7,970 bases of DNA from a virus (lineage: Duplodnaviria > Heunggongvirae > Uroviricota > Caudoviricetes). Made by a program: the position numbers and the translations under genes. The stretch spans positions 1 to 7,970 of the IMG/VR virus record IMGVR_UViG_2698536392_000014. One strand, given 5' to 3'. Below, piece after piece: positions 1-7,722 of the stretch (position 1 is the stretch's first letter; the number at the start of each line of letters is the position of its first letter). Under the pieces are notes generated by a model. It did not search any database, was not told the DNA's origin, and worked only from the letters and a program-made list of their open reading frames with translations.

Positions 1-378
1 CGCATGACAAAAGAGTTGACAGGTAAAACTCTGTTTATGGCGCTCAGGAGCCAGCGCCCACCTGCCGGGATAATCCACCACTCTGATCGAGGTTCACCGT
101 ACTGCGCATACGATTACCTGGTCATACAGGAGCAGTTTGGTCTGAGAACATCAATGTCGCGTAAAGGTAACTGTTACGACAACGCTCCGATGGAAAGCTT
201 CTGGGGAACGCTGAAAAATGAGAGCCTGAGCCACTATCGTTTTAATAACCGGGATGAAGCCATCTCAGTAATACGGGAATACATTGAGATTTTCTACAAT
301 CGTCAGCGTCGTCACTCTCGTCTGGGGAATATCTCCCCGGCAGCCTTCAGGGAAAAATATCATCAGATGGCTGCTTAA
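1..378 (+). CDS. IS3-family transposase OrfB (DDE integrase core), C-terminal 125 codons; 5' end outside window
   Basis: Frame is open from position 1 to TAA at 376-378. The translation (...HHSDRGSPYCAYDY...SMSRKGNCYDNAPMESFWGTLKNE...FYNRQRRHSRLGNISP...) matches, from memory, the C-terminal catalytic region of IS3-group OrfB proteins (compare IS3 InsF ...HTDRGGQYCSADY...[24 protein letters not shown]...YNRWRRHS...). Confidence 0.85.
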   Translation, partial: RMTKELTGKTLFMALRSQRPPAGIIHHSDRGSPYCAYDYLVIQEQFGLRTSMSRKGNCYDNAPMESFWGTLKNESLSHYRFNNRDEAISVIREYIEIFYNRQRRHSRLGNISPAAFREKYHQMAA

Positions 379-395
379 AAAAAGAACAAATGGTA

Positions 396-421
396 GTGTC
401 CGCTATTGCCAGTACACCTCA
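396..421. repeat. putative right terminal inverted repeat of the IS3-family element
   Basis: GTGTCCGCTATTGCCAGTACACCTCA resembles the inverse of the IS3 left end as I recall it (..CAGCAATAGTGGACAC.., terminal TGA/TCA); about 19 of 26 positions agree. The IS3 reference is recalled, not looked up. Confidence 0.4.
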
Positions 422-1482
422 AGAGTGTCAGTTGCGCTCTGATTTGTTCCTTCATCTTCAAACACGCCCTTTGTAGTCAGGTATTCAGTAATGTATTTGT
501 TCAGTGCCACAGGGTCTTTGTGAATGTCGATCGGACGTTCACGGACAAGGCCAAAAATAGTCTGGCGGTCGTAGCGAAGGGCATCAGGCTGTTTGCGCAT
601 TGATGCCGAGATACGCTTCCAGTCTTCGCGGCCGTTGTCGATAACTTCATTTTTTGCCCAGCGATGGATGCTGCCGTCAATGTTTCCGGCATCCACATCA
701 CCAGGCCAGAGAGCGTAGGCCAGTTCGTCATCCAGTGTTTTCCATGTCTGCTTGTATTCGCGATGAATGGCAGCAATGACCGGGCTGATTTTTCCTGTTG
801 AATTTTCAGTGTACTGTTGATTGGCTCTGGCGCGGGCGAGATCAACAACAGACGTGTATTTTCCGGTTTCCTTGCGTTCACCTTCGCGACGTTTTTTCCA
901 GATGCGCATTTCTGTCTGAATTTCGGGCCATTTGGCACCAGGCTTACATTTATGCTTAACCCACCCGATAGCATGCAGCTTAAGCTCCGGATACATGGCG
1001 TTAACTTCTGGCATTTTCATCAACGCTTCAACGATATGTCCGTCGAATGTTGCCATGTCTTCCTGCAACAATTCCTGCGCGCTAATCACCATATCAACGG
1101 TGATGTTTTCACATGTGTCGAACTTAACCATGACAGCGTTCTGTACTTCAGGGGCCAGCTTGTCAAAAGCGACGTTCATCGGATCTGATTCAGTCTCAAC
1201 CGGGACAAAGGAAGCAGACTCCTCATCCCAGCGGTTTTCCTGCATATATTCAGCATCCCAGGAATAGAGGGCAGGGCGGGGTATACCGGGTTTATCCTCG
1301 CAAACAAGAAATTTATAAGCGCAGTCCTGAGCAGCCGGATAATGCTCCAGGAATTGCCAGTGAAATTTTGCGCGGGCGCGACGTTCATCACCGGCTTCAA
1401 TGGCAGTGGCTACAGCGACTGCACCTTCTTCCTTTATTGCCTGTTCGTCCGGAATGGCGGCGCAAATAAAGACTTTACTCAT
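403..1482 (-). CDS. hypothetical protein, 359 aa; 3' end probably truncated or replaced by the IS insertion
   Basis: Long ORF with ATG at 1482 and a GAGG Shine-Dalgarno 9 nt upstream. Several shorter ORFs on both strands inside it look like shadow ORFs. Its last ~6 codons and TAG stop (403-421) lie inside the putative IS terminal repeat. No catalytic motif recognised by eye. Confidence 0.7.
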   Translation of the reverse strand: MSKVFICAAIPDEQAIKEEGAVAVATAIEAGDERRARAKFHWQFLEHYPAAQDCAYKFLVCEDKPGIPRPALYSWDAEYMQENRWDEESASFVPVETESDPMNVAFDKLAPEVQNAVMVKFDTCENITVDMVISAQELLQEDMATFDGHIVEALMKMPEVNAMYPELKLHAIGWVKHKCKPGAKWPEIQTEMRIWKKRREGERKETGKYTSVVDLARARANQQYTENSTGKISPVIAAIHREYKQTWKTLDDELAYALWPGDVDAGNIDGSIHRWAKNEVIDNGREDWKRISASMRKQPDALRYDRQTIFGLVRERPIDIHKDPVALNKYITEYLTTKGVFEDEGTNQSATDTLEVYWQ

Positions 1483-1761: not shown

Positions 1762-1950
1762 TTATTGACGTTCTCCGAAAATACCAAGTTCAAGAAGAGC
1801 AATTCGGGAAAGTATGGAATTATCATTGAGCAGATAAGGCTCATATTTCCTCATATTAATGGCATCTTCAGTAAACTCCCGGTTACTGAGCAGAACACCA
1901 ATATCAAAACAACCTTCAGACGTATTAACGTTTGGTAATAACGTTTCCAT
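1762..1950 (-). CDS. small hypothetical protein, 62 aa (METLLPNVNTSEGCFDIGV...)
   Basis: The ORF track gives 1762..2055 from a GTG; an internal ATG at 1950 is preceded by GAGGA 7 nt upstream and is the more plausible start. Same strand as neighbouring leftward genes. No family recognised. Confidence 0.4.
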   Translation of the reverse strand: METLLPNVNTSEGCFDIGVLLSNREFTEDAINMRKYEPYLLNDNSILSRIALLELGIFGERQ

Positions 1951-2055
1951 TATCGCGTCCTCAACAATGAATTTTGTGATGCGGTGCCTGGTGCCTCCAG
2001 GTGACGTTAACCAGTTAACAATTAACGCCGGATACAGAGAATCCACCCATAACAC

Positions 2056-2518
2056 TGTTTTTGGTTTTAACTGTTCCGCGTGCGCTGAGCCGCATTCACC
2101 GCATCACAAAATTCACTTTAAAAAGGGCGGCAGAGCAGCCACGGAGTAAAACTGATACCGCCAAACGTCACCAGAAAATTGATAACAGAGGGCGTTGCAG
2201 CGGGGTTGTCACTTAAGCGTATGGTCAACCTGACAACCCTGTGTCCTCAACGGGGGAAGGGATAACCCCGCCATACTTACCGCCGCGCCATTTCGCGGAT
2301 TGCCACAACCGGAAGCGCACGGTCGACGAAAATTTAACGACAGGCTATCTATGAACCAGCTACCTCGCCGTGCGCTTTCGCGTTATGGTCTGACTTTTCA
2401 GGGAAATATCCTTTCAGTAAACTGTCAGTGCCGGATGCTCACCCGTGTCCGGCGCACGCACTCCACCTCACCCGTGGAGAACTCCTTAATTACCAACCTT
2501 AGCTTCGTTGGTTAGCTA
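2056..2518. other. ORF-free, hairpin-rich region (about 460 bp) inside the leftward gene arm
   Basis: No ORF with a credible start on the minus strand (checked by hand in three frames). Contains an 11-bp stem (2201-2211 with 2231-2241), two adjacent stem-loops each carrying CTCACCCGTG (2438-2447, 2467-2476) and a 6-bp stem-loop at 2492-2512. Confidence 0.4.
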
Positions 2519-2737
2519 TTAACGCGGGTATGTAATCATTCTGGCAATGCTTAATGCCGCTGCTTTTTCCAGATTGGTGATATCCTGCTCCAGAGCGGAC
2601 AGATTTTCAGCCTGCTTAGCCCTGGCTTCATTGGCCCATTTCAGCTCCTGCGCTGCATTAATTTTCTGGTGCATCCACTCATAAAGTTCATCATCGGTAT
2701 AGTCTGGCGCGATGATGACGGGTTCTCGTTTCTGCAT
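2519..2737 (-). CDS. small hypothetical protein, 72 aa
   Basis: ATG at 2737 preceded by a consensus AAGGAG Shine-Dalgarno 5 nt upstream (reverse complement of CTCCTT at 2743-2748); TAA stop at 2519-2521. Predicted helical and charged. No family recognised. Confidence 0.55.
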   Translation of the reverse strand: MQKREPVIIAPDYTDDELYEWMHQKINAAQELKWANEARAKQAENLSALEQDITNLEKAAALSIARMITYPR

Positions 2738-2828: not shown

Positions 2829-3029
2829 ATGAATACAATCAAGTTTTCTTGCCCAGAATGTGGCGGCGAAGTCTTTGACACATCCTTTAAACCGCATGGC
2901 TCTGACAGTTTCGCGGGAGCCATCTGCAAAAATTGTGGTCACCTTGTAACTGAAGATGAGTCCTCGCAGTTTGATGACGAAATCGTTGACAATATCTTCG
3001 GTGCACTCACCAGAGACTTTCTGAAGTAA
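2829..3029 (+). CDS. small zinc-ribbon protein, 66 aa (CPEC-x22-CKNC)
   Basis: ATG at 2829 with GAGAGGA 8 nt upstream; two CxxC pairs with zinc-ribbon spacing; acidic C-terminal tail; no rare codons. Overlapped codon-on-codon by an antisense ORF (2808..3164), treated here as its shadow. Confidence 0.5.
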   Translation: MNTIKFSCPECGGEVFDTSFKPHGSDSFAGAICKNCGHLVTEDESSQFDDEIVDNIFGALTRDFLK

Positions 3030-3078
3030 AGGCGCATACCGCTTAGTTACCGCTCTGATAATTCTTACCTGTCCGGCA

Positions 3079-3116
3079 ATGGCGCTGATATCAATATAAA
3101 GCGCCATCGCTGTTTC
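3079..3116 (+). terminator. candidate terminator hairpin downstream of the zinc-ribbon gene
   Basis: Perfect 8-bp stem ATGGCGCT (3079-3086) with AGCGCCAT (3100-3107), 13-nt loop, followed by a T-rich tract CGCTGTTTCTTT. The long loop makes it atypical. Confidence 0.35.
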
Positions 3117-3342: not shown

Positions 3343-3371
3343 AATGTAAGAATATTTAGTTTTGTCGTCAA
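3343..3371 (-). promoter_or_regulatory. candidate leftward sigma70 promoter (PL-like) just downstream of the repressor gene
   Basis: On the minus strand: TTGACG (3371..3366), 17-bp spacer, TACATT (3348..3343). Would drive transcription away from the repressor 3' end into the leftward arm. Confidence 0.4.
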
Positions 3372-3372
3372 G

Positions 3373-3395
3373 TTGAATATAAATATTTTTAAGAT
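3373..3395. repeat. copy 1 of the motif TTGAATATAAAT(ATTTTTAAGAT), candidate operator or UP-like element
   Basis: First 12 bp are identical to 4102-4113; lies immediately upstream of the leftward -35. Confidence 0.45.
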
Positions 3396-3440
3396 AAAAG
3401 GCCGACAAAGCCGACCTCTGATTACAGGGCAAAGCGGGAG

Positions 3441-4085
3441 CTAGAGGCTGAACTGAACACCTTTTGCTACAGCAACGATGTTACATTCCGGTGTAAGTAA
3501 GGATGATTGATAGCGTGGGTTAAGGGGGGCTAAGTACACGAGCTTTCCATCAATAACTAATTTTTTTATAGTCATGGATGGTTCGTTTGTGAGTGGATCT
3601 GGGACTATTACTGCGACGATGCTACCATTTTTATATTTTTCGCCAGGCCTCATGATCACTGTGGCTCCAACTGGAATGCTTGGGGATCCTGATGGATTGT
3701 GCATAGTATCATCAGGCATTGAAACGGCAAAATCTCCCTCCTTGACATCAAAGAATGTGGTGATCCTGTCGACATTTCCCATAGTTTTCTCTCCTTTTAA
3801 TATTAGGAAAGAAATCGCTTCTCCCCAAGAAAGGTATGGGATTTGGGTACCTGGATTTTTCTGCACAAGGGATGATTCAGGTGATGATACTCCATACAGG
3901 AGATAGGACTCAGTAGTGCCTAGTGCTAGGGCTAATTTACTAAGAGCTTTGCTACCTGGTTCGTTTAGATCTTTCTCCCAGTATCCTATTGTTACCCCAG
4001 TTACGCCAGAAAGCTTGCCAAGTTCAACTTGGGTCAGACCTTTGTCTTTTCTGAGTTTCTTAAGCCTAATGCCAAGGCTTTCCAT
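3441..4085 (-). CDS. LexA/cI-type phage repressor (N-terminal HTH, C-terminal S24 autopeptidase domain), 214 aa
   Basis: N-terminal HTH (..KGLTQVELGKLSGVTGVTIGYWE..); C-terminal S24-like region with candidate catalytic Ser (..FAVSMPDD..) and Lys (..TIKKLVIDGKLVYLAP..); GGGAG Shine-Dalgarno 6 nt before ATG at 4085; divergent from a Cro-like gene. Confidence 0.9.
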   Translation of the reverse strand: MESLGIRLKKLRKDKGLTQVELGKLSGVTGVTIGYWEKDLNEPGSKALSKLALALGTTESYLLYGVSSPESSLVQKNPGTQIPYLSWGEAISFLILKGEKTMGNVDRITTFFDVKEGDFAVSMPDDTMHNPSGSPSIPVGATVIMRPGEKYKNGSIVAVIVPDPLTNEPSMTIKKLVIDGKLVYLAPLNPRYQSSLLTPECNIVAVAKGVQFSL

Positions 4086-4101
4086 TATTTTCTCCCGCGA
4101 A

Positions 4102-4123
4102 TTGAATATAAATTATTTTAGAT
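4102..4123. repeat. copy 2 of the motif TTGAATATAAAT(TATTTTAGAT) in the repressor/cro intergenic region
   Basis: Same 12-bp core as 3373-3384, same orientation. Its reverse complement contains a TATATT -10-like hexamer suitable for a PRM-like repressor promoter. Sits just upstream of the rightward -35. Confidence 0.45.
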
Positions 4124-4127
4124 TGTA

Positions 4128-4156
4128 TTGACCTAAAAAAAATTACCCTTTAATCT
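4128..4156 (+). promoter_or_regulatory. candidate rightward sigma70 promoter (PR-like) for the cro-like operon
   Basis: TTGACC (4128-4133), 17-bp spacer, TAATCT (4151-4156); about 30 nt upstream of the cro-like ATG, which has an AAGGGGAG Shine-Dalgarno. An imperfect inverted repeat ATTTTAG...CTAAAA spans the -35. Confidence 0.5.
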
Positions 4157-4184
4157 AAAAATACTTAGTTTTAAGGGGAGCGAA

Positions 4185-4412
4185 ATGCGAGTTGATGAAC
4201 TTGTCCAGTTTTTTGGTTCTGTCCAAAGAGTCGCTGATTTTTATGGGGTAACCCGAGAAGCTATATACATGTGGCGTAAGCGTCCCGGCGAAATAGTTCC
4301 CAAGGGGAGGGCTGCTGAAGCAGTTGCATACTCCAAGGGAAAATTATCGTTGAACCCAGAACTTTACAAAAAGAAGGATAACACCTCGAACGAAAGGAAA
4401 AATGATTCATGA
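4185..4412 (+). CDS. Cro-like HTH regulator (P22 Cro / YdaS-like), 75 aa
   Basis: Divergent from the repressor; strong Shine-Dalgarno; the HTH segment (..FGSVQRVADFYGVTREAIYMWRK..) resembles, from memory, the P22 Cro / YdaS pattern (..FGTQRAVAKALGISDAAVSQWK..). Confidence 0.8.
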   Translation: MRVDELVQFFGSVQRVADFYGVTREAIYMWRKRPGEIVPKGRAAEAVAYSKGKLSLNPELYKKKDNTSNERKNDS

Positions 4413-4705
4413 AAATCAAACATGAACACATCCGCATGGCGATGAATGCCTGGGCATATCCTGATGGTGAGAAAGTGCCTGCAGCTGAAATAGCCCGGAC
4501 TTATTTCGAACTTGGGATGACGTTCCCGGAACTGTACGACGACAGCCATCCGGAAGCCCTGGCCCGTAATACCCAGAAAATTTTCCGCTGGGTGGAGAAG
4601 GATACGCCTGATGCGGTTGAAAAAATTCAGGCGCTGTTACCGGCGATCGAAAAGGCGATGCCGCCTTTGCTGGTGGCCCGTATGCGCAGTCACAGTTCTG
4701 AATAA
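4409..4705 (+). CDS. YdaT-like / CII-analogue small regulator, 98 aa
   Basis: Start overlaps the cro-like stop (ATGA at 4409-4412), with AAAGGA 10 nt upstream. The N-terminus MKIKHEHI... matches my recollection of YdaT-family proteins that follow Cro-like genes in Rac-type prophages. The family assignment is recalled, not verified. Confidence 0.7.
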   Translation: MKIKHEHIRMAMNAWAYPDGEKVPAAEIARTYFELGMTFPELYDDSHPEALARNTQKIFRWVEKDTPDAVEKIQALLPAIEKAMPPLLVARMRSHSSE

Positions 4706-4855
4706 ATGGCTGAACTGCTGAATGATGCACATCCGGAATGGAGTTTAAGAACCTGTGAAAGACGCATTGAGCATTGGCTAAAGGTGGCAGAATTTATTTT
4801 GTACAAACCAATGGTTATGGCTTCTGGTATAGAGAAAAAAGTTATTGCTTTTTGA
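4706..4855 (+). CDS. possible small ORF, 49 aa, coupled to the preceding gene (TAAATG)
   Basis: ATG directly follows the TAA of the YdaT-like gene and ends before the intrinsic terminator; no Shine-Dalgarno of its own. Below the 60-aa cutoff of the ORF track; found by hand translation. Confidence 0.3.
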   Translation: MAELLNDAHPEWSLRTCERRIEHWLKVAEFILYKPMVMASGIEKKVIAF

Positions 4856-5425: not shown

Positions 5426-6502
5426 ATGCTTAATACTGTAAAAATATCCAGTTGTGAGTTAATCAACGCTGATTGCCTGGAATTTATCCAGACCTTACCG
5501 GAAAACTCTGTCGATCTGATAGTCACAGACCCGCCATACTTTAAAGTGAAGCCCGAGGGCTGGGATAACCAGTGGAAGGGCGACGATGATTACCTGAAGT
5601 GGCTGGACCAGTGTCTGGTGCAGTTCTGGCGGGTGCTGAAACCTGCCGGAAGTCTTTACCTGTTCTGTGGCCATCGCCTGGCATCTGACATTGAAATCAT
5701 GATGCGTGAACGCTTCAATGTGCTGAACCATATTATCTGGGCGAAGCCGTCCGGACGCTGGAACGGGTGCAACAAGGAAAGCCTGCGGGCGTATTTTCCG
5801 GCCACAGAACGCATTCTGTTCGCGGAACATTATCAGGGGCCGTATCGTCCGAAAGATGATGGCGATGAGGCGAAGGGCAGGGCACTGAAACAGCATGTGA
5901 TGGCCCCGCTGATTTCTTACTTTCGTGATGCGCGTGCTGCTCTTGGGATAACGGCAAAACAGATTGCAGATGCCACAGGAAAGAAAAACATGGTGTCGCA
6001 CTGGTTCAGTGCCAGTCAGTGGCAGCTACCGAACGAAAGCGATTATCTGAAATTACAGTCGCTGTTTGCCCGGGTGGCAGAAGAGAAACATCAGCGGGGA
6101 GAACTGGAAAAGTCCCATTACCAACTGGTCAGCACATACAGTGAGCTGAACCGGCAGTATATGGAACTGCTGAGTGAATATAAGCATCTGCGGCGGTATT
6201 TCGGTGTGACGGTGCAGGTGCCGTACACCGATGTGTGGACGCATAAACCGGTGCAGTACTATCCAGGGAAACATCCGTGCGAAAAACCGGCAGAAATGCT
6301 GCGGCAGATAATCTGCGCGAGCAGTCGTCCGGGTGACCTGGTGGCGGATTTTTTCATGGGTTCTGGCTCAACCATAAAAGCAGCTATGGAGCTCGGGCGT
6401 CGTGCAACTGGTGTTGAACTGGAGGCAGAACGTTTTGCGCAGACCGTTAAGGAGATTAGTCACATCCTTACATGCTCAATTGATGACGGGAAGGATGGAT
6501 AA
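5426..6502 (+). CDS. DNA methyltransferase, beta-class amino-MTase (N6-adenine or N4-cytosine), 358 aa, apparently orphan
   Basis: Motif IV DPPY near the N-terminus (..VDLIVTDPPYF..) and AdoMet motif I near the C-terminus (..DLVADFFMGSGSTIKAA..); order IV-I defines the beta class, with a central target-recognition region containing an HTH-like stretch. No restriction endonuclease gene adjacent. ATG at 5426 has no obvious Shine-Dalgarno. Confidence 0.9.
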   Translation: MLNTVKISSCELINADCLEFIQTLPENSVDLIVTDPPYFKVKPEGWDNQWKGDDDYLKWLDQCLVQFWRVLKPAGSLYLFCGHRLASDIEIMMRERFNVLNHIIWAKPSGRWNGCNKESLRAYFPATERILFAEHYQGPYRPKDDGDEAKGRALKQHVMAPLISYFRDARAALGITAKQIADATGKKNMVSHWFSASQWQLPNESDYLKLQSLFARVAEEKHQRGELEKSHYQLVSTYSELNRQYMELLSEYKHLRRYFGVTVQVPYTDVWTHKPVQYYPGKHPCEKPAEMLRQIICASSRPGDLVADFFMGSGSTIKAAMELGRRATGVELEAERFAQTVKEISHILTCSIDDGKDG

Positions 6503-6613
6503 AGATATGGTCAGTTCAGGCTGTGAAGCAAGTAGACAGATAAGGCTGCAATAAAAACTGACAATAGTAAAATAGCTTTTTCCCAGGTAGTCATGAATAC
6601 GATCTCTTAAAGC

Positions 6614-6633
6614 GCCCGCTGATACCAGCGGGC
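6614..6633. other. GC-rich hairpin downstream of the methyltransferase gene
   Basis: Perfect 8-bp stem GCCCGCTG with CAGCGGGC and loop ATAC. Only a short T run on the minus-strand side and none on the plus side, so a weak terminator at best. Confidence 0.3.
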
Positions 6634-7271
6634 AATACATACTGGCATTAATGTTAAGTTCAGGGATAATTCATCGTATTTTGTGGTACGACGCTATCAA
6701 TATTAATAAACAGTATTTTTCATGTAAAATTTCTGTTTTTTGATCTGATTCTCGTTTCCTGGGTTATGATGTTGTTGTGAACCATGCTGTTGAATGATAA
6801 TGTTCGGGTATAAAATTGTTGCTGATATGTAGCGCAGTGAGCAGGTGGTATTTCTGTTGCTGAGTGTACGGATACAGTGCTTCCCTCCCTCAGCGGGGGG
6901 GCAGGTGTGCTGTGGTTTTAGAGACACCGGAAACGAGAATGATGCGGGTTTGCTGGTGCCGGGATAGAGTCGCCGGAGGTCATGACATAGAGCAAAAAAG
7001 GAATGTGCATGCAAATACACACCTCTTCGGAGATCTCTTCTTTATATGGATGAGCCTCAAGGTCAATAGTTTATCTGTTATGTATTCATATGTTGTTACT
7101 TATATAATCCATACGGGCATATCATCAGTACACACATACTATTATGGCATTTTATTTTTGTTTTAACTGAATTCCCGGGGCACTCTTTTTGATTTCTGAT
7201 AAGGAACCAGAATTTTCTGTTAAATGGTGTCACGTTGTAAATGGTTAATGGAAGCAGCTTATTATCCATAA

Positions 7272-7295
7272 TCACACCTGAGTTAACAGGTGTGA
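7272..7295. promoter_or_regulatory. perfect 9-bp inverted repeat TCACACCTG-AGTTAA-CAGGTGTGA, candidate binding site for a dimeric regulator
   Basis: Exact palindrome arms with a 6-bp spacer, inside an ORF-poor AT-rich region about 430 bp upstream of the next gene start. Confidence 0.35.
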
Positions 7296-7722
7296 GAATA
7301 CTTCCGGGTGGCAGGAACACATCTGACTGATACCAGATTATCAACTTTATTTTACACCATACAGTTGAAAACGTTATTCCGCTTGATGGGCATATCACTG
7401 TGTCAATAACTATCCATTCCATCTTTTAACCTTCTCGGTACACATTGCTTTCGATTGTTTTGCTAAAAATCATAGTCAATAAATCAGTGTAACTCATTGA
7501 AAAAGATCGTCTTCTTTGTCTTCCTGGGGTTTTCTTTTCTAATTTTGTATCACTTTGGTTCAAGTTGTTTCATTTTTTTGTAATACAAATTAGCAGGATG
7601 AGCGGGAATATAAAAAAATCGGATGTTTTTGTAATGGATATTATTTTTTGTAAAATAATGTATTTTTATTTAAATCTCTATCAGAAAAGAATTTATTGTT
7701 CCTTTATATGGTGGAAAAGGTC

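Follow-up and report, generated by a model that had tools for sequence, protein, structure and literature searches.

DicF, a small RNA that blocks cell division, has been studied since 1989-1990, and its locus is long known. In Escherichia coli K-12, Ragunathan et al. 2023 (PMC10448788) showed, as had Faubladier et al. 1990 before them, that DicF derives from a polycistronic transcript starting at dicBp. RNase III makes the 5' end of a 190-nt species and RNase E makes that of the 53-nt species, and primer extension gave no internal promoter (PMC10448788). Transcripts ending at the DicF terminator and read-through transcripts were both seen in that strain, and the ydfA transcripts vanish in the absence of RNase III (PMC10448788). 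In the Qin prophage of K-12 the dicBF region has the order ydfC, about 340 nt, dicF, 174 nt, dicB and a ydfD-like gene.

The same order, with the same spacing, is found in the DNA analysed here, a window of 7,970 nt (the whole stretch, taken from a virus record of IMG/VR). A sequence-only reading had singled out positions 2056-2518 as about 460 bp without an ORF in a leftward early operon, and had suggested a structured non-coding RNA, possibly an sRNA or a processed-operon signal. This suggestion was right, the RNA being DicF with its processing signals, and the finding is already explained by the known locus. The segment is very probably the dicF region of the dicBF operon of a Qin-like lambdoid E. 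coli prophage, with DicF processing of the K-12 kind.

The dicF region and its operon

The identification as a dicF locus rests on the Rfam match, on the layout of K-12 Qin and on the single base that separates the two DicF sequences. The DicF family (RF00039) was matched at 2176..2125 with 75 bits against a threshold of 48 (E = 1.3e-15), over model positions 1-52 of 52. Compared with K-12 dicF (b1574), 52 of the 53 nt are identical; the sole difference falls in the apical part of the 3' hairpin, and the targeting region is identical to that of K-12. DicF is encoded between ydfC and dicB, on the same strand, in a prophage dicBF operon, and it has a single-stranded 5' targeting region and a 3' Rho-independent terminator as does K-12 DicF. 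The terminator scan placed the terminator hairpin at 2142..2127, followed on the minus strand by CCUUUUU, and the earlier statement that none of the hairpins has a following U tract was therefore wrong.

The only ORFs listed on the minus strand of the segment are one of 36 aa starting with TTG (2118..2228) and one of 31 aa starting with GTG (2225..2320), both within RNA features. In this respect the description of an ORF-free segment stands: there is no credible minus-strand ORF, because the product is an RNA. Its border at 2056, however, arose only because dicB had been read with a GTG extension (1762..2055). Since the Pfam DicB domain covers residues 1-62 of a 62-aa product and RefSeq annotates the equivalent of 1762..1950, the non-coding interval between ydfC and dicB is 1951-2518, that is 568 bp (Table 1).

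The operator-like repeats of the probable promoter region (3343..3401) also occur in the cro-side region at 4085-4174, and the promoter adjoins the gene of a 214-aa cI-like repressor (3441..4085) in which Pfam finds HTH and Peptidase_S24 domains. Because this repressor is an S24 protein of the LexA/cI type, the operon is probably SOS-inducible here. Beyond dicB follow a DUF1482/ydfD-like gene and a recE-like exonuclease gene truncated by IS600. Over positions 1700-2800 the window matches E. coli 2013C-4830 with 100% identity, and the flanking genes bear the names ydfC and dicB in that strain. Of 5426 complete E. coli genomes, 4747 contain related sequence, the median being two places in each genome.

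For comparison, about 300 loci were gathered with a DicF pattern, with leader patterns and from annotated phages. The DicF-pattern scan of genome contigs contributed 8 loci only, the plasmid scan gave mainly P1-like near-duplicates, and the metagenome scan, limited by a pattern in which conserved bases had to be fixed, gave few leader variants that were new. All dicF loci share a common homology from about 2398 down to dicB, whatever stands upstream. The upstream breakpoints of homology fall at 2398/2406, 2458, 2476, 2498 and 2737, and beyond them the loci carry differing genes, some of them on the opposite strand. This pattern of breakpoints defines a conserved core made up of the RNase III-type hairpin, the leader, DicF and the dicB UTR.

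Table 1. Features of the dicF region and of its operon, in coordinates of the window.
Feature	Position	Strand	Basis
Probable PL-type promoter and operators driving the operon	3343..3401	minus	promoter-like TTGACG-17-TACATT at 3371..3343
ydfC, 72 aa, last protein gene before the non-coding stretch	2519..2737	minus	ORF list; identical RefSeq sequence annotated 'protein YdfC'; K-12 order ydfC-dicF-dicB
6-bp hairpin just past the ydfC stop, ACCAAC/GUUGGU, 9-nt loop	2492..2512	minus	read from sequence: 2492-2497 / 2507-2512
Twin hairpins with 10-nt direct repeat CACGGGUGAG, in the mosaic-junction zone outside the conserved dicF core	2430..2479	minus	repeat search; homology breakpoints
Long imperfect hairpin, 86 nt, ~22 bp in three segments, putative RNase III substrate	2303..2388	minus	inverted repeat I2 and folding
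Conserved leader domain of the DicF precursor, 122 nt, five helices and a pseudoknot	2187..2308	minus	covariance model R1, 141.9 bits; pair counts; RNAalifold
Leader helix P0, closing	2309-2302/2201-2194	minus	comparative model
Leader helix P1	2298-2294/2287-2283	minus	comparative model
Leader helix PJ	2282-2279/2242-2239	minus	comparative model
Leader helix P3, pyrimidine-rich loop	2270-2266/2255-2251	minus	comparative model
Leader helix P4, the hairpin noted earlier at 2201-2241	2237-2231/2211-2205	minus	comparative model
Leader pseudoknot, GUAUGG with CCAUAC in the P4 loop	2276-2271/2224-2219	minus	comparative model
A/U-rich single-stranded linker, ..GUUAUCAAU↓UUUCUGG (arrow, predicted cut)	2178..2186	minus	identical to K-12
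DicF sRNA, 53 nt	2125..2177	minus	Rfam RF00039 and identity to K-12 dicF b1574
DicF intrinsic terminator: inner 3' stem-loop and U tract 2124..2120	2120..2142	minus	terminator scan; Rfam alignment structure line
Structured dicF-dicB spacer, the dicB 5' UTR	1951..2119	minus	sub-threshold Rfam STnc100 match; helix read from sequence
dicB, 62 aa, cell-division inhibitor, downstream of the DicF terminator	1762..1950	minus	Pfam DicB PF05358, E = 6.4e-37, residues 1-62; RefSeq

Downstream of the terminator, an 11-bp long-range helix (2107-2097 with 1986-1976) closes the dicF-dicB spacer, of which the segment singled out earlier had taken in no more than the first 64 nt. STnc100 (RF02076) could be aligned at full length over 2127..1918, with 37.7 bits against a threshold of 47 (E = 1.8e-6), and by sequence the spacer appears related to STnc100, although under the curated cut-off. 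A permissive Rfam search of 1900-2800 (E<=5) returned only DicF, the sub-threshold STnc100 and a chance-level match to the S. aureus tsr32.

Processing signals and the leader domain

The longest inverted repeat of the segment (2310-2322/2368-2380, 13 nt, 92%) belongs to the hairpin at 2388..2303, which has a folding energy of -37.4 kcal/mol and, folded as 2400..2296, a z of -3.18 against shuffles. Relatives conserve its base, GAAAGCGCACGG/CCGUGCGCUUCC, and have a hypervariable apex. Covariation in the stem is weak, the changes being mostly one-sided and some of them breaking pairs. This hairpin would be the substrate of RNase III. Placed by the length of the 190-nt form, measured from the 3' end of DicF, the cut would fall at about 2314-2310, in the 3' arm of the hairpin and directly before the leader. 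The RNase E cut predicted to give the DicF 5' end, between 2178 and 2177, was placed from the 5' end of K-12 dicF; its site in the linker presumably fits the RN↓WUU preference of RNase E. Comparison with shuffled controls, proposed by the sequence-only reading, gave a modest excess of structure for the whole 463 nt (z = -2.25, with 1 of 100 shuffles as good). That reading had missed DicF, its terminator and the longest inverted repeat, and had stressed the wrong elements.

Both cleavage steps and the lack of a promoter inside the region are taken from the K-12 experiments, and by analogy the present copy would be processed as it is in that strain. Transcription would start from the repressor-controlled PL-type promoter near 3343-3371 and run leftward via ydfC into the spacer. 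An internal promoter was considered and rejected, as the promoter scan found no promoter-like site on the minus strand within 2056-2518, in agreement with the K-12 primer extension. A cut by RNase III in the hairpin at 2388..2303 would then leave an intermediate of about 190 nt, consisting of the 122-nt leader, the 9-nt linker and DicF, and RNase E would cut the linker to release the 53-nt DicF (2177..2125). The 3' end of DicF would be set by its own intrinsic terminator, part of the polymerases reading on into dicB. Mature DicF would act together with Hfq by pairing with the ftsZ, xylR, pykA and manX mRNAs, as described in the K-12 literature.

The comparative model of the leader was built on 28 representatives (alignment A1) and then on 99 sequences (A3), the latter aligned by a covariance model without the pseudoknot. 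In A3, 96.8% of the cells are paired and 8 pairs have changed on both sides. At most one of 500 shuffles (0-1) reached a covariation score as high as that of the leader, and on A3 the score was above all 500 shuffles and the slid controls; close relatives dominate the alignment, with an effective sequence number of 1.4. Compensatory changes support the fold of the leader. At least five different stem sequences occur in P3, all of them able to pair, and the loop is pyrimidine-rich in every case (UCCU, CUCC or UCUU). A U-A pair of P4 has become C-G in P1/P7 and also in two other loci (L136/L169). In the pseudoknot, a change from U-A to C-G is seen in the P1 lineage and in locus L237, together with U.G intermediates, which amounts to about two independent compensatory events in its support. 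The junction and loop nucleotides of the leader are near-invariant. The present copy has A2240 where nearly every relative has C, and this breaks one PJ pair.

The same base bears on the 11-bp stem reported earlier at 2201-2241. A hairpin with a 19-nt loop does exist there, but on the transcribed strand its stem has 9 bp (2203-2211/2231-2239), because A2240.C2202 is a mismatch at the tenth pair on the minus strand and the 11 bp hold only for the plus strand. Seven of the nine pairs are supported by comparison. As an alternative to P4 we considered the inverted repeat I1 (2200-2214/2257-2271). By eye, it is lost in relatives with different P3 stems, and the local P3 and P4 were preferred for this reason. 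For the pyrimidine loop of P3 we also considered a pairing with GAGGA motifs of the leader and of the dicB ribosome-binding site, but it did not hold consistently among the variants. Folded as a single sequence, the 190-nt RNA is not unusually stable (z = -1.42) and differs from the comparative model.

In a BLAST search against phages, 2309..2186 stood out as a part of the spacer that is conserved by itself. The leader region is found in the cdtI, Ayreon and Stx2c phages and in a Salmonella phage with 82-89% identity, and in P1/P7 with 75-80%. It is followed by at least ten different cassettes of linker and terminator, of which DicF is the commonest. The Rac prophage keeps the RNase III-type stem and the sRNA KilS without the leader. 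The leader is therefore a module that can be separated from the rest, delimited by the two P0 strands, and it is not strictly required for sRNA production as such. Against Rfam the leader had no family match at E<=5. Its absence from Rfam makes it a modest new lead, although Faubladier et al. 1990 or Faubladier & Bouché 1994 may already describe the region. Rather than an inert stretch, the approximately 137 nt that lie between the two cleavage sites (RNase III and RNase E) in the DicF precursor form a conserved, pseudoknotted domain supported by covariation.

Competing explanations for the spacer and for the leader

The gap between ydfC and dicB is unusually long for a phage early operon, as would be expected if a protein-coding gene had decayed there, but we see virtually no chance that this is the case. 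A pseudogene was rejected after comparing the ORFs of 13 representative homologous loci, in which no sense ORF is conserved. The sequence-only reading had named intact genes in homologous prophages as the sign of such decay; none of more than 100 homologous loci has a sense-strand gene at this place, and the decay of a gene is therefore not the explanation. Antisense ORFs vary between loci (54, 97, 48 and 98 aa), the variation follows RNA helices and not codons, and the K-12 transcript is by experiment an sRNA precursor.

The repeated loop motif CTCACCCG had also been proposed as an element recognised by a protein. The two copies of the 10-bp direct repeat CTCACCCGTG, at 2438-2447 and 2467-2476, match exactly, and the twin stem-loops, as well as the 6-bp stem-loop after the stop of the 72-aa gene, are as they had been described when read from the sequence. 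One of the twins (2479..2461) pairs CTCCAC at 2461-2466 with GTGGAG at 2474-2479, giving a 6-bp stem and a 7-nt loop, and the other (2453..2430) pairs GCCGGA at 2430-2435 with TCCGGC at 2448-2453, giving a 6-bp stem and a 12-nt loop. An exact 10-nt repeat displayed in two adjacent loops of an early-left transcript would suit recognition of GGGUGAG by a phage protein, at a nut/boxB-type or operon-processing site. Among relatives, however, the stems persist and the loops vary, with GGAUAAG, GGGUCAG, GGGUGCG (in K-12) or GGGUAAA in place of GGGUGAG. Unrelated sequence stands in place of hairpin 1 in the 2458 and 2476 classes, three loci (L088, L106 and L132) have a 29-nt deletion exactly between the two repeats, and most dicF loci are without the region altogether, their homology starting at 2398. 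The variable loops, the replacement and the deletion make a motif-specific protein site unlikely. As a conserved short boxB hairpin with a fixed loop the twin hairpins fail, having variable loops of 7 and 12 nt and being often absent. The more general idea of a nut-like antitermination site fares no better. Nine matches to boxA with 3 mismatches were found against 8.0 expected, the sole one inside 2056-2518 lying on the non-transcribed plus strand, and the minus strand between the promoter and dicF has none. An N-type antiterminator gene was neither annotated nor detected here, or in the phages Tritos and mEp460. Taken together, recognition of the twin loops by a phage protein is extremely improbable. 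The twin hairpins could rather be dispensable junction hairpins which, once RNase III has cut, would shield the upstream ydfC fragment at its 3' end. Such a role, possible but doubtful, would fit the loss of ydfA transcripts from K-12 without RNase III. The 6-bp hairpin at 2492..2512 is present only in loci carrying ydfC.

For the leader, we tentatively propose a function as a cis-acting folding module, which would shield the 5' end of the 190-nt intermediate, expose the linker to RNase E and in this way set the yield of the sRNA; we would rate this at somewhat less than an even chance. A rather unlikely but wider proposal is that the leader is an unclassified cis-acting RNA module of lambdoid and P1-type phages, located in repressor-controlled early operons and combined with interchangeable seed and terminator cassettes, which would actively control the outcome at the terminator, either as a factor-independent antiterminator or as a module of sRNA maturation. 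Taken by itself, a factor-independent processive antiterminator like the put RNA of HK022, folding on the nascent transcript, binding RNA polymerase and directing read-through of the DicF terminator and of later ones to dicB, recE, xis and int, seems unlikely to us. It would account for the constant place of the leader, immediately ahead of an intrinsic terminator within an early operon under repressor control, and near-invariant junction and loop nucleotides in front of a variable cassette are expected if the RNA contacts a conserved host machine. The terminated and read-through transcripts of K-12 are also in keeping with it. In Tritos and mEp460_ev081, both deposited as complete phage genomes, dicB, ydfD, recE and xis lie beyond the DicF terminator and no N-type gene is annotated. 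With recombination and excision genes thus placed in complete-genome phages, read-through becomes a concrete question. Nevertheless, a leaky terminator alone could explain read-through, and Rac lost the leader, yet kept kilR downstream. Homology of the leader to HK022 put was considered and rejected: the best match of the leader model in the 10 kb HK022 early region reached only 6.8 bits (E = 0.52), which is not significant, and BLAST gave no match to HK022. The architectures differ as well, with five helices and a pseudoknot in 122 nt for the leader against two stem-loops in about 70 nt for put, and each locus has a single leader, with no second one near PR. With several helices meeting at a junction, a pseudoknot and unpaired nucleotides that are near-invariant, all just ahead of a terminator, the leader might also be taken for an aptamer sensing a ligand or signal, which would control termination at the DicF hairpin in the manner of a riboswitch. 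We regard this as very improbable, given that no alternative leader-terminator antiterminator pairing was identified by eye, that the leader is without an Rfam match, and that linker and terminator are freely exchanged among relatives, which is hard to square with a coupled expression platform.

Relationship to Qin, Rac, HK022 and P1

The K-12 Qin prophage is among the nearest known systems. Identity over the ydfC-dicB spacer is about 98% there, and this stretch takes in the RNase III-type hairpin and the leader as well as the linker and the terminator. Around this spacer the two prophages differ. The repressor is here the 214-aa protein with HTH and Peptidase_S24 domains instead of DicA, ydfA and ydfB are replaced, and a zinc-ribbon gene on the opposite strand stands upstream of ydfC. 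Within the RNAs, the differences from Qin are one base change in the apical region of DicF and one, A2240, in the leader.

The early transcripts of HK022, a lambdoid phage without N, likewise contain structured RNAs, putL and putR, in a comparable position downstream of PL and ahead of terminators. They come as two copies per phage, downstream of PL and of PR, in contrast to the single leader of each locus.

The KilS sRNA of the Rac prophage of K-12 (b4833, in the kilR 5' UTR) has the same RNase III-type stem, linker and GGCGG-type terminator hairpin, and downstream the same STnc100-like UTR followed by a cell-division killer gene. It differs in its seed and in being without the 122-nt leader, the junction running from CCGGUUGU directly into AAAUAACGACAUUG. 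The paper that named KilS does not mention DicF.

In P1/P7, the 'dicF-like region' that is annotated in P1, in the leader of the C1-controlled ban operon, contains the same leader domain (about 91-100 bits with R1). As in the present locus, the leader is followed by a terminator-hairpin cassette and lies just downstream of a repressor-controlled promoter. The P1/P7 leader is about 75-80% identical, the cassette behind it bears no relation to DicF, and dicB is replaced by tRNA genes and ban. The RNase III-type hairpin is missing there since the leader starts some 25-30 nt past the annotated ban promoters. These comparisons suggest that DicF, the KilS of Rac, the 'dicF-like' element of P1/P7 and several unnamed variants are one modular cassette family with exchangeable seeds, and a family of this kind would explain how prophages diversify the targets of their sRNAs.

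Control of the operon and state of the prophage

Following the annotation of the window (see table), the repressor gene was found to encode an HTH and Peptidase_S24 protein of the LexA/cI type, whereas the repressor of K-12 Qin is DicA. Operator-like repeats (TTGAATATAAAT...) are present on either side of this gene. From this repressor and its operators, the dicBF operon of the window is probably SOS-inducible, in contrast to that of K-12 Qin. The zinc-ribbon gene lies on the opposite strand within the leftward operon, with the promoter on one side and ydfC on the other. K-12 has ydfA and ydfB at this site, and opposite-strand genes likewise adjoin the dicF module in many relatives.

The recE-like gene, annotated without its C-terminus in RefSeq, adjoins the 3' end of the IS600 transposase gene; this truncated gene at the junction, together with the truncated ydaT and DUF1133 fragments, shows that the prophage is defective. 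To the right of the methyltransferase gene, iraM is found within an AT-rich stretch (6500-7700).

Coordinates of features in the window and in two comparison loci
Feature	Position	Strand	Remark
IS600 (IS3-family) transposase gene, 3' end	4-378	+	
recE-like exonuclease gene	403-1482	-	RefSeq: C-terminus missing
GUUGAGGAC, dicB Shine-Dalgarno region	1965-1957	-	
dicB 5' UTR	1918-2127	-	
11-bp long-range helix enclosing dicB 5' UTR	2107-2097 / 1986-1976	-	GUGAUGCGGUG / CACCGCAUCAC
GUUGAGGAC, leader copy	2250-2242	-	just 3' of helix P3
Zinc-ribbon gene, 66 aa	2829-3029	+	RefSeq: ECs_2282 family putative zinc-binding protein
Operator-like repeats	3343-3401, 4085-4174		
Repressor gene	3441-4085		HTH + Peptidase_S24
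Truncated ydaT and DUF1133 fragments	4409-4855		
Prophage methyltransferase gene	5426-6502		
iraM (anti-adapter protein IraM)	7096-7422	-	
STnc100-like element, part-length	L130 (P1) 2842-2961		
KilS sRNA (b4833) cassette	L297 (K-12 Rac) 2906-3090	-	

Variation in the leader and the twin hairpins

Window position 2240, within the pseudoknotted leader upstream of DicF, is A, versus C in nearly every other collected leader variant (CACAGGG versus CACCGGG) and U in one relative. The A disrupts one G-C pair of leader helix PJ and may make the domain slightly weaker in this prophage. The 9-mer GUUGAGGAC is present twice on the minus strand, and the P3 loop (UCCCUU; in relatives, UCCUU) shows complementarity to GAGGA. 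A possible sequestration of the Shine-Dalgarno region proved inconsistent among variants.

An E. coli-type leader (86.7 bits) was also found at about 1600-1780 of L174, recorded as Actinobacillus phage vB_Apl-pPE4, where the whole linker and sRNA-terminator cassette is tandemly duplicated 3' of the leader. The stated host is surprising because the neighbouring genes (dicA, ydaT, kil and exo VIII) look enterobacterial.

In three relatives (L088, L106 and L132), 29 nt are deleted exactly between the two CACGGGUGAG repeats (window equivalent 2447-2476), fusing the twin hairpins into a single one. The direct repeat acts as a substrate for recombination or slippage.

The dicB 5' UTR and the KilS cassette of Rac

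The dicF-dicB spacer, which forms the dicB 5' UTR, has strong structure of its own and matches Rfam STnc100 over its full length at 37.7 bits, below the threshold of 47. This STnc100-like element is also present in Rac, 3' of KilS, and P1 carries a part-length copy. The paper that named KilS makes no mention of DicF. The KilS cassette is a paralogue of the DicF cassette. It lacks the 122-nt leader and shares with the DicF cassette a stem of the RNase III type, a linker, a terminator hairpin of the GGCGG type and the downstream UTR.
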